64,000 nucleotides of DNA from Patescibacteria group bacterium (GTDB lineage Bacteria; Patescibacteriota; Patescibacteriia; UBA9934), in assembly GCA_049296775.1 (NCBI GenBank), contig JBAQTB010000001.1:288992-352991 (forward strand). Reading direction: 5' to 3'. Positions within the stretch are counted from its first letter, which is position 1; the number at the start of each line of letters is the position of its first letter. Below the pieces are notes generated by a model that worked only from the letters and a program-made list of their open reading frames with translations, had not been told where the DNA came from and ran no database searches. Position numbers and translations under genes: made by a program. This document shows positions 27,166 to 39,851 of the stretch, in pieces.

Positions 27166-29493
27166 ATGTATCTCCAGCGCTTAGAAGTTCAGGGGTTTAA
27201 GACCTTTGCCAAGAAGACAGTTTTGGAGTTTCCGGCGCCACAGGCGGGGTCGAATCCATTAACAGTGGTGGTGGGGCCGAATGGTTCGGGTAAATCTAAC
27301 TTGTCTGACGCTATCCGGTGGTGTCTCGGTGAACAGTCGATGAAACAACTGCGGGGCAAGGAATCGCAAGATATTATTTTTTCTGGTTCTGAAGGGCGTG
27401 GTCGCGCTAATTTTGCGGAAGTAACTTTGACCTTCAATAATGAAGACAAGAGCATGCCGAGCATTGAGGCGAGTGAGGTCACAATAGCGCGTCGGCTGTA
27501 TCGGGATGGGGAATCGAGTTACATGATGCAAGGAGCTGAAGTTAGGTTGAGCGATATTCAATTGACTTTGGCTGAAGCAGGTGTGGGTCAACGCTCGTAC
27601 GCGGTGATCGGTCAGGGTATGGTTGACCACATTTTGACCTCATCACCAGAGGAACGCAAGATTTTTTTCGATGATGCTACGGGCGTGCGTGGTTTGCAGA
27701 TCAGACGTCACCAATCGATGCTTAAGTTAGAGCGTTCGGCTAAGAATTTGGCTGATGTTGAGCTCCTTTTACAGGAACTTGAACCACGTTTGAATTTACT
27801 TAAGCGCCAAGTGAAGCGTTTGAATGAGCGTGAAAAAGTAGAAGCGGAGCTCAAGGAAATCTCAGCGAACTATTTTGGTACTCAATTTTGGAACTTGCAA
27901 GATGAGAAACTAGCTATCGACACCAAGGTGCAATTAGCCCTCCAAAAAGTGGAAGCTAAGAAGTCTGAGTTGATGGCCGGAGATGCCAAACTGGCAGAGA
28001 TGGAAAAGGCTGAGGCTGGTAAGGTGACGGATACTAGCGGCGTGCAAGAATACCAGTCGGCGTACAAGACGGCGCAAGAAGAGTTGGCGGCTGCCCGTAA
28101 GGCGCACTTTGCGATTGAGCGTGAAATTGAACTGGCTAAGGTCAGAGCTCAGTCATCTTGGGCGCCTTTACCGCTGACTGACATTATTGGGGAGGTGAAG
28201 GAGCTGGCCAGTTTGCATGAGCGTTTGTTTGCTATCGTAAAGACGTGGGGACGGGTCGTCGACCCATCCGTACGTGAAGGCGAGATTCAGAATGTGGTGC
28301 AGGAGATTGAGGCGGCGCTCGGCCGGTCGAGCAAGCTGCGGGATCGCCTGATCAAGCCGAATCCTGAAGATTTCAAGGTCGATCCTAAACATAAAGCAGA
28401 TCTAGATAATGCTAACGGGTCGATTAAAGCCGCTGAGGCCAAGGTTAAAGAGGCTGAACAGGCTATGGATGCTAAGGCCAGAGAAGCCTCGGCCTCTAAG
28501 AGCGAAGTATTTGCTTTTCAGCGGTCTTTACGCCAGTTGCAGGCCGAGGTGATGCAGCTAGAAAATGAGCGCAATGCACATAGCGTGGAATTAGCGCGCG
28601 TAGAAACTCGGATTGAGTCGCTCATGGTTGAGTCACGTGATGCTATTGGGGAGCAGCGCACTGAAGACATGATCCGTACCGCGCCTGAGACTCGGGCTGT
28701 GAACATTCATGAGCTACATGACAAGATGGTCCGTGTGCGTCATCAACTTGAGATGATCGGCGGCATCGATCCGGAGGTCGTGAAAGAACATGATGAAGTT
28801 AATGAACGGTTTACGTTTTTGTCGACTCAGGTATTTGATTTGCGCGGTGCGATTAAGGCGACTGAACGGGTGGTGGATGAATTGGATCAAGAAATCAGAT
28901 CCCAATCAGAACGGGCCTTTAAATCGATTAACGAACATTTCCAGAAATATTTCAAAGTGTTGTTCGGTGGGGGTTCATGTTCACTCGTTAAAATGACGCA
29001 GGATGATGTTTCTAGTGAAAATCAAGTTGTTTTAGATAGAGCCATGGAGCAAGTGGCGGGGGAGCATAACGAACAAGAGGAGTCTTCAGAGAGAATTTCA
29101 GAGCGTGTGGCTAACCGTAAAGAGGCTGTGGCGGGAATTGATATTCAAGCCACGCCACCTGGCAAGAAATTGAAGGCGCTGAATTTGCTGTCTGGCGGTG
29201 AGCGCGCTTTGACGTCGATTGCGTTGTTGTCTGCCATCATGGAAACCAATCCGTCGCCGTTTGTGGTATTGGATGAGGTTGATGCCGCGTTGGATGAAGC
29301 GAATACCGTGCGTTTTGCGAATATTTTGAATGAATTACGTTTGCATACGCAGTTTATTGTCATCACACACAATCGCGCGACCATGGAAAAGGCCGATACG
29401 TTGTACGGCGTCACCATGGGGGATGAGGGTATTAGTTCGTTATTATCGGTGCGATTGGAGGATATCGCGGGGGGCGATTCGGCGCGGCGGTAG
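27166..29493 (+). CDS. smc: SMC-family chromosome-condensation ATPase, short form (775 aa, no recognisable hinge)
   Basis: The N-terminus MYLQRLEVQGFKTFAKK...VVGPNGSGKSNLSDAIRWCLGEQS and the C-terminus LSGGERALTSIALLSAIME...VVLDEVDAALDEANT...FIVITHNRATMEKADTLYGVTM are canonical SMC head motifs. The middle is coiled-coil-like with no glycine-rich hinge block. Confidence 0.8.
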   Translation: MYLQRLEVQGFKTFAKKTVLEFPAPQAGSNPLTVVVGPNGSGKSNLSDAIRWCLGEQSMKQLRGKESQDIIFSGSEGRGRANFAEVTLTFNNEDKSMPSIEASEVTIARRLYRDGESSYMMQGAEVRLSDIQLTLAEAGVGQRSYAVIGQGMVDHILTSSPEERKIFFDDATGVRGLQIRRHQSMLKLERSAKNLADVELLLQELEPRLNLLKRQVKRLNEREKVEAELKEISANYFGTQFWNLQDEKLAIDTKVQLALQKVEAKKSELMAGDAKLAEMEKAEAGKVTDTSGVQEYQSAYKTAQEELAAARKAHFAIEREIELAKVRAQSSWAPLPLTDIIGEVKELASLHERLFAIVKTWGRVVDPSVREGEIQNVVQEIEAALGRSSKLRDRLIKPNPEDFKVDPKHKADLDNANGSIKAAEAKVKEAEQAMDAKAREASASKSEVFAFQRSLRQLQAEVMQLENERNAHSVELARVETRIESLMVESRDAIGEQRTEDMIRTAPETRAVNIHELHDKMVRVRHQLEMIGGIDPEVVKEHDEVNERFTFLSTQVFDLRGAIKATERVVDELDQEIRSQSERAFKSINEHFQKYFKVLFGGGSCSLVKMTQDDVSSENQVVLDRAMEQVAGEHNEQEESSERISERVANRKEAVAGIDIQATPPGKKLKALNLLSGGERALTSIALLSAIMETNPSPFVVLDEVDAALDEANTVRFANILNELRLHTQFIVITHNRATMEKADTLYGVTMGDEGISSLLSVRLEDIAGGDSARR

Positions 29494-29518
29494 GGACGGG
29501 GGATGCAAATCCCATACC

Positions 29519-29613
29519 GTAGAGACGGCCGTGAGGCCGTCTCTTACACATCGCGCGGGTGCATGCGTGATCGCGGGTGGAAAAGCGCGAGACGGCCAGA
29601 AGGCCGTCTCTAC
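29519..29613. repeat. Inverted doublet of REP-like palindromes (GTAG-initiated)
   Basis: Hairpin 1 (29519-29546) is GTAGAGACGGCC gtga GGCCGTCTCT. Hairpin 2 (29589-29613) is GAGACGGCC agaa GGCCGTCTCTAC, which is the same unit in the opposite orientation. Between them atcgcg(c)gggtg occurs twice. Confidence 0.5.
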
Positions 29614-29626
29614 GGCGATATGCAAT

Positions 29627-30136
29627 ATGCCAAATGACAGATTCCGTGATCGGTATCGTATTTCGTCGCCCCGATTATTGGGGTGGAATTATGCCAAATC
29701 GGGTTGGTATTTTGTGACGATATGCACAAAAAATCGTAATCATTATTTTGGTGATATCGTTACGATGCCTGATGGTATTGCTGGTATGGAATTAGGGCTT
29801 GCAGGTGATATTGCCTTAAGGGAAATTATGGCCCTGAAGACTCGCAGGCCGAATATAAACGTTGATACCTTTGTAGTCATGCCGAATCACGTGCACTTAC
29901 TGATTCAACTTGGAAAGCAGAATAACTCTGCACTTGGTGTCATAATTGGCCAATTAAAGGCGGGGATCACGCGCTGGGTTACGGATGCCGGGATGACTGA
30001 TTTTGCTTGGCAGGAGAGATTTCATGAGAAAATATTGCGATACGGTTTAGGCGTGGATGAGGTCCGTGCCTATATCCGTAATAATCCTAAGCAATGGCTT
30101 AAAGACCGCAATAACCCCCTGGGCATTTACATGTAG
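29627..30136 (+). CDS. HUH single-strand (Y1) transposase, IS200/IS605 TnpA or REP-associated tyrosine transposase (RAYT)-like
   Basis: WYFVTICTKNRNHYFG; the HUH motif MPNHVHLLIQL; a C-terminal catalytic-Tyr region RAYIRNNPKQW. About 170 aa. It lies immediately downstream of the palindrome doublet. The ORF-track start at 29330 overlaps the smc 3' end and is rejected in favour of the ATG at 29627. Confidence 0.65.
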   Translation: MPNDRFRDRYRISSPRLLGWNYAKSGWYFVTICTKNRNHYFGDIVTMPDGIAGMELGLAGDIALREIMALKTRRPNINVDTFVVMPNHVHLLIQLGKQNNSALGVIIGQLKAGITRWVTDAGMTDFAWQERFHEKILRYGLGVDEVRAYIRNNPKQWLKDRNNPLGIYM

Positions 30137-30163
30137 TATGCTTTACGCTAAGATCCCAAGCTT

Positions 30164-31057
30164 ATGGTATTTGGTTTTAAAGGTGAAAATAATCAGCCCG
30201 CTAGACGGCCCGGAAGAAGCCCGAATGCTTCAGGTAGACCGCACAAGCAAGGTCGAAGGCCGAATGCTAGCCAATCTAAGGCCCCAGTGGCTGCTGCCAA
30301 AGGTGCTAAAGGTTCATGGGAGCCGGTGGCTAAATGGTACGGTAAACATCTAAAAGAAGAGGATACTTTTCAATCTGAGGTGATTTTTCCAGGTTCTTTG
30401 CGTTTGTTGTATCCCGTAAAAGGCAAAAATTATCTCGATATTGCTTGTGGTGAGGGATCATTTGCCCGGGCGGTGGCGAATACGGGGGCTATGGTGATTG
30501 GTTTTGATATTTCTTCGACCTTGATTAAGCAGGCTGAGGCCAAAAAAATCAAAGGGGCAACTTTCCGTGTCGCCAACGCTATCGATTTTGCCAGATATTA
30601 CGACCAGGCGACCTTTGATGGCGCTGCTTGTAACCTGGCTATTCAAAATATCGATGAGTTTGCGGCCGTGTTCAAGGATGCTGGCAGAGTGTTAAAGTCA
30701 GGCGCTCCATTCGTGATTGTGCTGAATCACCCTATGTTCCGTATTCCTCGGCAGACTGGTTGGGGTTGGGATGAGGGTAGAGGCTTGCAATTCAGACGCA
30801 CTGACGCGTATTTGTCGCCGAATGAAATCCCGATTGTCGCTAATCCGGGGGAGGGCGCTAAAAGTAAGGTAACCTATTCGTATCACAGGCCACTTGAGAC
30901 TTACATCAAGGAGCTAGCTAATGCAGGTTTCATGGTCGATGCTATCGAAGAATGGATCTCACACCGCAACAGCGATAGTGGCCCTAGAGCCAAAGCCGAG
31001 AACCGCGCCCGCCAAGAGATCCCAATGTTCATGGCAATTCGAGCGATTAAGAAGTAA
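30164..31057 (+). CDS. Class I SAM-dependent methyltransferase with basic low-complexity N-terminal extension
   Basis: YLDIACGEGSFARAV and MVIGFDIS (motifs I and II). The N-terminal ~60 aa are Arg/Pro/Lys-rich with the repeat RRPGRSPNASGRPHKQGRRPNAS. The start codon is uncertain. Confidence 0.65.
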   Translation: MVFGFKGENNQPARRPGRSPNASGRPHKQGRRPNASQSKAPVAAAKGAKGSWEPVAKWYGKHLKEEDTFQSEVIFPGSLRLLYPVKGKNYLDIACGEGSFARAVANTGAMVIGFDISSTLIKQAEAKKIKGATFRVANAIDFARYYDQATFDGAACNLAIQNIDEFAAVFKDAGRVLKSGAPFVIVLNHPMFRIPRQTGWGWDEGRGLQFRRTDAYLSPNEIPIVANPGEGAKSKVTYSYHRPLETYIKELANAGFMVDAIEEWISHRNSDSGPRAKAENRARQEIPMFMAIRAIKK

Positions 31058-37181: not shown

Positions 37182-37579
37182 GCCGCTCGTCGCTGAAAGA
37201 TCCTTAGTCCTTTCCCATTCGGTCCATTTTCGACTCACGAAGCCTCGGCGGTTTCGTCTACGTAGTATTCACTACGTTTCCTCACCGCCACTCCGTTTAT
37301 CGAAACTAGCCTCGAATGAGAAAGTCCTAATGTCAAAATCTTCTGGACGTGGACTTTCACAATTTAGATAACCATATCAAAACGATGTATCAACCCCACA
37401 GTAGAAGCTTCGCTTCACTGTAGGGCTAAGCAATGATTAATTGTGTGATTACAACGTCCTATTCCAAAGTCCTAAACCCTCGGGTTTAGGCGACTATGAG
37501 GTGATACGTAAGTATCTACTTAATGGTTTAGCAGATACCCCAAACGTAGCTCCGCAAGGAGCGAAGTGGGGGTGTTTTT

Positions 37580-39071
<1,492 letters not shown>

Positions 39072-39191
39072 TCAAAGGAATTTTCCTTTATCGGTCGAGA
39101 TCATAGAGTCGTACGTAAGTATGACTTTACGATACACGGGACGTTGTAATCACAGAGTTAGTCATTAGAGCATCGCTTGATTGGTATCAAA

Positions 39192-39396: not shown

Positions 39397-39471
39397 TGGT
39401 GCCGGGAGACAGGATCGAACTGTCGACACAAGGTTCTTCAGACCTTTGCTCTACCACTGAGCTACCCCGGC
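39397..39471 (-). tRNA. tRNA-Phe (anticodon GAA)
   Basis: Reverse complement is GCCGGGGTAGCTCAGTGGTAGAGC...AAGGT CTGAAGA ACCTT...GGTTCGATCC...CCCGGC A CCA. Its own hairpin plus T-run (agaaatcc gttt ggatttct) lies at 39368-39396. Confidence 0.85.
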
Positions 39472-39774: not shown

Positions 39775-39851
39775 TGGTGGGTGTGGATGGATTCGAACCA
39801 TCGACCTCTTCCTTATCAGAGAAACGCTCTAACCAACTGAGCTACACACCC
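39775..39851 (-). tRNA. tRNA-Ile (anticodon GAT)
   Basis: Reverse complement is GGGTGTGTAGCTCAGTTGGTTAGAGC G TTTCT CTGATAA GGAAG ... GGTTCGAATCC ... CACACCC A CCA. Confidence 0.85.

Follow-up and report, generated by a model that had tools for sequence, protein, structure and literature searches.

A probable RAYT gene with a single upstream REPIN-like doublet next to smc in a Patescibacteria genome

Introduction

Among described systems of repetitive extragenic palindromes (REPs) and REP-associated tyrosine transposases (RAYTs), the one closest to the locus reported here is that of the TnpAY1 subclass 2.4, which corresponds to RAYT group 4 of Bertels and co-workers (Quentin et al. 2018, BMC Genomics 19:475, PMC6006769). 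We describe here a locus in a 64,000-nucleotide stretch of the contig JBAQTB010000001.1 (assembly GCA_049296775.1, positions 288,992 to 352,991), from a metagenome-assembled genome (MAG) of a Patescibacteria group bacterium. This stretch is referred to below as the window, and all unqualified positions are positions in it. The locus consists of a gene for a Y1 HUH endonuclease and, between it and the upstream smc gene, two short palindromes in inverted orientation. We consider it highly probable that it represents a RAYT/TnpA-REP gene with one REPIN (an inverted REP pair able to form one long hairpin), built from a GTAG-footed GTAGAGACGGCC-loop-GGCCGTCTC palindrome.

Proteins of subclass 2.4 carry the motifs NH[IFV]H, WQ and YIxNNP, have a median length of 194 aa and are encoded by about 1.5 gene copies per genome in Cyanobacteria, Bacteroidetes, Chloroflexi and various other phyla, and they have a variable insertion between beta3 and alphaC that is often an in-frame REP (PMC6006769). 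Their cognate REPs are of a long or "double-foot" type with GTAG feet. The supplementary REP table of the same study holds REPs of the form GTAGAGACG...CGTCTCTAC, which among the rows listed are labelled subclass 2.4, and gives GTAGAGACGCACGGCCGTGCGTCTCTAC as the REP of Chloroflexus aggregans ACL24330.1. Bertels et al. (2017) found group 4 to be rare in Proteobacteria, to occur in 17 bacterial classes and to have flanking 16-mers of low abundance (about 14 occurrences), a description that fits the window locus. With regard to the palindrome itself, the exact stem GTAGAGACGGCC was not found in the REP table of Quentin et al. (2018), a full-text literature search for GTAGAGACG returned unrelated primer sequences only, and the GTAGAGACG motif was not found in the supplements of Di Nocera et al. 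(2013).

Results

Two inverted copies of one palindrome precede the Y1 gene

The gap between the smc stop codon (29491-29493) and the ATG of the Y1 gene (29627) contains two perfect stem-loops of one shared unit, GAGACGGCC-N4-GGCCGTCTC (positions 29522-29543 and 29589-29610), in opposite orientations, as had been proposed in an initial reading of the bare sequence (hereafter the sequence-only reading). Hairpin A is AGAGACGGCC-GTGA-GGCCGTCTCT (29521-29544); its 10-bp stem is preceded by CCGT, so that a GTAG foot is formed at 29519-29522. Hairpin B, GAGACGGCC-AGAA-GGCCGTCTC, has a 9-bp stem, and the TACGG that follows it gives CTAC at 29610-29613. The outer feet of the doublet are therefore GTAG (hairpin A) and CTAC (hairpin B), and these two tetranucleotides had been correctly recognized from the start. 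With the flanking bases included, each hairpin becomes an arm of 27 nt, CCGTAGAGACGGCC... for A (29517-29543) and ...GGCCGTCTCTACGG for B (29589-29615). These inverted arms are 89% complementary and are separated by 45 nt.

When folded as single-stranded DNA, the 99-nt doublet formed a single long hairpin (-38.4 kcal/mol, z = -6.2) in which the four loop positions appear as an interior mismatch. The doublet thus has the geometry of a REPIN, that is inverted REPs with a short spacer that can form a long hairpin, and both GTAG-footed hairpins are located 11-108 nt upstream of the start codon, so that a hairpin with a GT[AG]G foot is present well within about 1 kb of the gene. When the core pattern was searched with at most three mismatches only these two sites were found in the 64 kb, as the sequence-only reading had stated, while 0.01 were expected by chance, and two matches were reached in 0/100 shuffled sequences. 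Chance does not account for the doublet.

Logan contigs of run SRR28012402, possibly assembled from the same reads as the source MAG, were 100% identical to the window over 5,887 nt including the doublet. Given that the doublet is present at 100% identity in a separate assembly, an artefact of one assembly is unlikely, and this identical assembly together with the same doublet in the assemblies of relatives from other samples (see below) led to the rejection of an assembly artefact.

The encoded protein resembles TnpA-REP

The open reading frame (ORF) downstream of the doublet encodes 169 aa (and not 170 aa, as first counted) and carries the two noted motifs, MPNHVH with H88 and H90 and RAYIRNNP with Y149. 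It is the only RAYT copy in the 64-kb window, and the protein is present in NCBI, encoded on a contig of 455,697 bp, under the name "MAG: transposase [Patescibacteria group bacterium]". It passed the cutoff of the Pfam family Y1_Tnp (33.4 bits vs 23), whereas it scored 16.5 bits against the NCBIfam IS200 model (NF033573), for which the cutoff is 55. In total 414 homologues were found at E <= 0.001. Among 43 homologues that were aligned, all 43 matched the NCBIfam model REP_Tyr_transpos (E <= 0.001) and only one matched IS200. Residues M85-P86-N87-H88, H90, W128, Y149, N153 and P154 were invariant in this alignment, and Q129 and V89 (>=90%) were near-invariant.

A profile made from the 43 sequences matched E. 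coli TnpA-REP (4ER8) in the PDB with an E-value of 7.7e-6 and the ISDra2 transposase with an E-value of about 0.9; the profile was needed for the match to 4ER8, since a phmmer search with the single sequence gave marginal matches only. The profile alignment to 4ER8 covers the HUH strand and W94-Q95...E100-H101...R104...Y115, and the assignment of the HUH motif was upheld, given that the invariant H88 and H90 align to HMH of 4ER8. The residues W94, Q95, E100, H101 and R104 have a role in GTAG recognition in E. coli (Quentin et al. 2018, PMC6006769); their counterparts W128, Q129, E134 and R138 are kept in the window protein, with K135 in place of H101. The AlphaFold2 model had a mean predicted local distance difference test score (pLDDT) of 85.3, and a Foldseek search of the PDB with this model returned 4er8_A as the top match (E 2.1e-7, template modelling score 0.57-0.59), with the TnpA structures of IS200/IS605 (IS608 and ISDra2) close behind. 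The tyrosine motif is of the Y---NP type (class 2) as opposed to the Y---Q type of IS200. Sequence comparison and the predicted fold thus support that the protein is of RAYT type and not of IS200 type. The motifs NHVH, WQ and YIRNNP agree with those of subclass 2.4, and this subclass appears to fit best on the basis of the motifs, the homologue family and the type of REP.

Automatic gene calls at loci of this kind run upstream through the REPIN and give ORFs of 268, 231 and 201 aa (window 29330-30136, L124 2423-3118 and L218 2368-2973; loci from other assemblies are designated by L and a number) vs 169-180 aa, with spurious N-terminal peptides such as ...VETAVRPSL...

The doublet is conserved at the same position in related Patescibacteria

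The locus was compared between five lineages, the window and L121, L124, L125 and L146. The closest homologues, with 48-56% identity to the window protein, were obtained from assemblies of Hainich groundwater, from an NCBI MAG and from a Logan assembly, and all of them are found in the gene order of the window. The order SMC_N, Y1 gene, class-I methyltransferase is kept in L121-L126 and L146, the methyltransferase is followed by Zn_ribbon_2 in L121-L124, and Peptidase_M10 is found nearby in L121-L123 and L125.

All five lineages have a REP doublet between smc and the start of the Y1 gene. Across the lineages the stems and feet show 96-100% identity, as compared with about 58% at third codon positions of the Y1 gene and about 55% in the spacer, whose length varies from 45 to 77 nt. 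The distance from the end of REP B to the start codon is 11 nt in the window and 11-23 nt across the lineages. Given that the synonymous divergence between the lineages is saturated (dS values of 0.9 to above 4), stems that stay this constant cannot be evolving neutrally. The Y1 protein is intact in every lineage, with a ratio of non-synonymous to synonymous change (omega) of 0.14-0.27 in the 3/6 lineage pairs for which it could be estimated. Gene and doublet are thus co-inherited at a fixed chromosomal position in this Patescibacteria clade.

Loop sequences vary from one lineage to another, but within the doublets of four of the five lineages the two loops are exact reverse complements of each other, in three distinct pairs: GTAA/TTAC in L121, CTCT/AGAG in L124 and GGCA/TGCC in both L125 and L146. 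When counted by hand, 12/12 positions in the three distinct pairs are Watson-Crick. The complementarity of the loops within lineages indicates that the two arms are kept matched, which could result from selection for pairing between the arms, from hairpin-templated conversion or from re-copying.

Low-level REP dynamics were seen in two cases. First, L121 and L122, which come from two Hainich H41 samples, encode one and the same protein and have flanks with 99.1-99.9% identity; the sole structural difference is a 73-nt deletion in L122 that has fused both REPs into a "double-foot" palindrome, CCGTAGAGACGGCCGTAAGGCCGTCTCTACGG, located at L122 2944-2977 in place of the doublet at L121 2873-2977. 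Second, the sample of L125 also contained a solo REP (L128 843-867) whose GGCA loop is shared with the L125 doublet. This REP adjoins an unrelated gene whose TAG stop codon is contained in the GTAG foot, and it may represent a dispersed copy within a sister genome. A second hairpin pair downstream of the gene, which the sequence-only reading had suggested should be looked for in related strains, was found in none of the relatives examined.

In one relative, L123 1740-1855 (GCA_964357745.1, CAYHMP010000025.1), poly-G/poly-C junk and a run of N lie exactly between the two REPs, suggesting that assembly or scaffolding broke at the inverted repeat.

The palindrome occurs with homologous genes in other phyla

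To judge the occurrence of the core palindrome outside Patescibacteria, genomes were scanned with one genome per species. It was found in many phyla, with at least 148 copies among the matches listed, and 38/148 of these had a GTA or TAC foot as compared with about 4.6 expected by chance. A homologue of the window protein is encoded right at the palindrome in 3/120 of the listed loci (L007, L031 and L008), and taking the metagenomic loci below into account homologous genes adjoin or contain the palindrome in L007, L008, L031, L164, L195 and L200. In L007 (Acidobacteriota) a 32%-identical homologue is flanked by the palindrome on both sides. In a deltaproteobacterial MAG (L031) the palindrome lies in frame inside the gene, in the part that encodes the loop following the HUH strand, with more copies outside the gene, and the in-gene palindrome of L008 (Chloroflexi) has the same arrangement.

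A scan of metagenomes for GTAGAGACGGCC-N4-GGCCGTCTC gave 89 stretches, among them the solo REP of L128. In a high-GC population the loop is constantly GTCA on a dozen or more contigs of one sample, and a 33%-identical homologue (L195) is found near such REPs. In contigs of about 50% GC a 95-nt doublet of the same architecture as that in the window is present at unrelated loci between which only the element itself is similar, and in this set such REPs flank genes for homologues that share 38-39% identity with the window protein (L164 and L200). The double-foot form is also found in many metagenomic copies. This multi-copy dispersal beside homologous genes indicates that this class of REP is repetitive and mobile in other hosts and that it travels with the protein family. 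Given that the same GTAG-footed palindrome is found beside homologous genes in unrelated phyla and is conserved together with the gene in syntenic relatives, the hairpins are, as judged by these comparisons, the likely cognate REPs of the Y1 protein.

With respect to the in-gene copies, GTAGAGACGGCCC...GGGCCGTCTCTAC at L031 570-592 (also 510-545) and L008 5214-5236 lies in the RAYT gene and is translated as ...(V)ETA(Q/R)RAVST... A VET...S[TL] segment is also present in many of the 43 aligned homologues, and Quentin et al. (2018) described such in-gene palindromes for subclass 2.4. In Acidobacteriota, the MAGs SMAG_U4618 and SMAG_U4681 contain many copies of a unit of about 45 nt, e.g. TTTGGGAGCGGAGAGACGGCCTGAGGGCCGTCTCAGCTTGGCAGG (L007, L014, L016, L032, L040, L041, L057, L065 and others), with the same core palindrome, a foot that is mostly GGAG vs GTAG, and frequent doublets with 42-67 nt between the units.

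One doublet in 73 kb of the source genome

The part of the source genome that was read comprises the 64-kb window and 9.1 kb past its 3' end (L216, 100% identical in the overlap), in total 73.1 kb of the 455,697-bp contig. No further copy of the core palindrome was found in these 73.1 kb, and a looser search for GTAGAGACGNNC gave no further copy that could form a hairpin. The density is thus at most one doublet per 73 kb, which points to a tiny REP population in this reduced genome. Of the two possibilities left by the sequence-only reading, a lineage with few REPs is favoured, and a solitary IS200-like relic is rejected in view of the tyrosine motif, the model scores and the synteny.

Coordinates and neighbouring features

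Table 1. Coordinates in the window of the REP doublet, the RAYT-like gene and the adjacent genes.
Feature	Position	Strand	Remarks
smc, short (775 aa)	27166..29493	+	Upstream neighbour, SMC_N; kept in all syntenic relatives
REP A	29517..29543	+	Foot CCGTAG, then GAGACGGCC-GTGA-GGCCGTCTC; stem and foot conserved in five syntenic lineages
Spacer between REPs	29544..29588	+	45 nt; unconserved (pairwise comparison between lineages)
REP B	29589..29615	+	Inverted unit GAGACGGCC-AGAA-GGCCGTCTC, then TACGG; ends 11 nt before start codon
Whole REP doublet	29517..29615	+	99 nt, REPIN-like, GTAG feet outward; same architecture at unrelated loci in other contigs
RAYT/TnpA-REP-like gene	29627..30136	+	169 aa, Y1 HUH endonuclease, subclass 2.4-like
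HUH codons N87-H88-V89-H90	29885..29896	+	Aligns to HMH of E. coli TnpA-REP
W128-Q129...E134-K135...R138 codons	30008..30040	+	Counterparts of E. coli W94, Q95, E100, H101 and R104; offset 34
Tyrosine motif Y149-I-R-N-N-P codons	30071..30088	+	Y149 aligns with catalytic Y115 of E. coli TnpA-REP
Class-I S-adenosylmethionine (SAM) methyltransferase	30164..31057	+	Downstream neighbour, kept in all syntenic relatives; begins 27 nt past the RAYT stop, no REP between

The smc product is 773-786 aa in all relatives, and in the window Pfam SMC_N spans residues 2-757 of the 775. Canonical bacterial SMC proteins have about 1,100-1,200 aa. A link between the palindromes as restriction sites, or a DNA methylase, and the neighbouring methyltransferase was considered and rejected; the neighbour is a class-I enzyme, UbiE-like and of small-molecule or RNA type, and its position is ordinary synteny.

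Elsewhere in the window a complete 16S rRNA gene (37577-39072) is present with no adjacent 23S rRNA gene; the genes that come next encode tRNA-Phe and tRNA-Ile and are on the other strand (39397-39471 and 39775-39851), so that the rRNA operon is unlinked. An ORF that enters from the window start (5-2056) encodes a C-terminus with two copies of the acidic repeat ATETTTPSPSVAGGEGEVTEEP.

Discussion

Interpretation of the locus and points against it

If the locus is a RAYT gene with its REPIN, its mode of action may be outlined from what is known for E. coli TnpA-REP and IS608. The protein would bind the REP hairpin on single-stranded DNA, for example on the lagging-strand template, would read the GTAG foot and would cleave the DNA close by, forming a 5'-phosphotyrosyl link with Y149, while H88 and H90 would coordinate the metal ion. 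Rejoining of the strands would then result in REP units being moved, copied or deleted. The spacer contains no promoter-like site and the start codon follows the end of REP B by 11 nt, and on these grounds the doublet may throttle expression of the RAYT gene; a speculative form of this idea is that it could serve as a structured barrier or operator that limits expression from smc read-through.

Several observations weigh against the assignment or against parts of it. The score of the protein against REP_Tyr_transpos (NF047646) is 58 bits, below the curated cutoff of 80, yet 43/43 homologues match this model, which places the protein as related to this equivalog set but outside it. The motif YIRNNP also fits that of subclass 2.7, YI[LR][NQ]NP, and the beta3-alphaC insertion typical of subclass 2.4 is absent in the window protein and its syntenic orthologues; many other members of the homologue set have it (VET...S[TL]; L031 and L008). 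The sequence-only reading had called an inverted REP pair beside the RAYT gene the textbook organisation, but the textbook REPtron has REPs on both sides of the gene, whereas here both are upstream as one doublet and no hairpin is present in the 27-nt gap between the RAYT stop and the next ATG. The window loops GTGA and AGAA are non-complementary (1/4 positions Watson-Crick), making the window the exception among the five lineages. The absence of an extra copy in 73.1 kb leaves the "repetitive" property of REPs without support in this organism. Finally, non-synonymous change in the Y1 gene is 3-7 times faster than in the genes for SMC or the methyltransferase (dN 0.31-0.50 vs 0.04-0.12), corresponding to amino-acid identities between lineages of 46-60% for Y1 and 84-94% for the neighbours, and this fast evolution could reflect relaxed constraint. 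The catalytic motif residues are nonetheless invariant.

Alternative explanations

One idea is that in this clade the RAYT persists with a REPIN "population" of essentially one. The fixed place of the doublet between smc and the RAYT start codon, its frozen stems and the concerted change of its loops would then mean that the two are kept as a self-contained unit in which the REPIN is the operator or sole substrate and which has a host function. The arms would in that case be kept matched by RAYT-mediated or hairpin-templated copying. We regard this as rather improbable; if true, such persistence would depart from REPIN-RAYT models that require a replicating REPIN population in the long term.

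A related explanation, which we consider unlikely, is that the RAYT has been domesticated, with the adjacent REPIN as its only or main substrate or as an operator, and is kept for a host function and not for the spread of REPs. Candidate functions would be autoregulation or processing of single-stranded DNA tied to replication or chromosome handling beside smc. The position next to smc, fixed in five lineages, would be expected from this, as would stems that are perfectly conserved despite saturated dS, the finding of one doublet only in 73 kb, the close and constant placement of REP B before the start codon in all lineages and the lack of a promoter-like site in the spacer. However, a solo REP with the same loop is present elsewhere in a sister population (L128), the deletion polymorphism from doublet to single element suggests ordinary low-copy REP dynamics, the fast evolution of the RAYT is unlike that of a core host function, and the adjacency to smc may just mark the ancestral insertion site.

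It is very unlikely that the hairpins are smc terminators or mRNA stabilisers that lie next to a Y1 gene by coincidence. Hairpin A does begin 25 nt after the smc stop codon, and in other bacteria REPs are known to function in RNA as well (Di Nocera et al. 2013). However, the stems are followed by the tails TTACACAT and TACGGCGA with no T-tract after either of them, a scan of 29300-30300 found 0 terminator-like sites, and the region had no Rfam family match. In addition, the same GTAG-footed palindrome is found with homologous Y1 genes in other phyla with no smc nearby, and two inverted copies with co-varying loops are unnecessary for termination.

The least probable explanation, which we regard as extremely unlikely, is a solitary IS200/IS605 element or relic, with the ORF as an ordinary TnpA gene and the hairpins as the left and right ends of a decayed insertion sequence (IS): the Pfam family is named "Transposase IS200 like" and the IS608 and ISDra2 TnpA structures closely trail 4ER8 in the fold search, but the tyrosine motif is YIRNNP (class 2) and not Y[IV]ENQ, the IS200 model score is far below its cutoff, both hairpins are upstream as inverted copies of one unit with none downstream, the neighbours of this gene, present once in the 64 kb, are smc and a methyltransferase with no tnpB, and five lineages whose synonymous divergence is past saturation have kept the gene intact and in synteny, with omega below 1.

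Significance

A RAYT gene with a cognate REPIN represents a kind of system that is already described, and it reveals no new mechanism. The genome background had been singled out as unusual, and this is true in the sense that a Patescibacteria host appears to be unreported, but it does not make the system exotic, since subclass 2.4 is already described in several phyla. A full-text literature search returned no paper that describes REP/RAYT systems or REPINs in Patescibacteria, the lone joint mention being an archaeal locus. The locus would extend REP/RAYT systems to a genome of the Patescibacteria (candidate phyla radiation, CPR), that of a small-genome groundwater bacterium. The orthologous loci also provide a natural series for the study of REPINs, in which the doublet is retained, its stems are frozen and the loops of its two arms change together, and the strain-level deletion that turns an inverted dimer into a "double-foot" REP is an example of the route proposed by Quentin et al. 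(2018, PMC6006769). With regard to annotation, the label "transposase" hides a single-copy, vertically inherited gene, and ORF calls run through the REPIN.

Comparison with known systems

The locus shares with IS200/IS605 TnpA (IS608 and ISDra2; subclass 1.1) the HUH/Y1 core fold and, as far as the recognition mode can be carried over, recognition of hairpins on single-stranded DNA. In contrast to these elements, it lacks the Y---Q motif, hairpins at both gene ends, near-identical multiple copies and a tnpB partner.

The similarity to E. coli TnpA-REP (YafM; 4ER8; subclass 2.2, RAYT group 2) includes the HUH/Y1 fold, the counterparts of Y115 and of W94/Q95/E100/R104, a cognate hairpin with a 5' GTAG foot and inverted REP pairs that adjoin a single-copy gene, as in the E. 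coli REPtron. The two proteins are only about 19% identical, the window has K135 where E. coli has H101, and the E. coli REPs have long bulged stems of another sequence, are present in hundreds of copies and flank the gene on both sides.

As in the REPIN-RAYT system of Pseudomonas (Bertels and Rainey 2011; group 3/subclass 2.5), an inverted doublet that forms a hairpin and has matched arms is found with a single-copy RAYT that is inherited vertically. In Pseudomonas the doublet is the mobile unit. The REPIN populations there are in the hundreds whereas one doublet is visible here, and the RAYT subclass and the REP sequence differ.

The locus differs from other members of subclass 2.4 in its host, a Patescibacteria MAG, in the lack of the beta3-alphaC insertion, in a doublet that is upstream and not flanking, in the lack of dispersed copies in 73 kb and in a stem, GTAGAGACGGCC, whose exact sequence is not in the published table. 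It is nevertheless to this subclass that it is most similar, with NHVH/WQ/YIxNNP motifs, a low gene copy number, a protein of roughly 170-200 aa with no C-terminal extension, REPs that start with GTAGAGACG and end with CGTCTCTAC, and a double-foot REP that arose by central deletion of an inverted dimer, seen here between L121 and L122.

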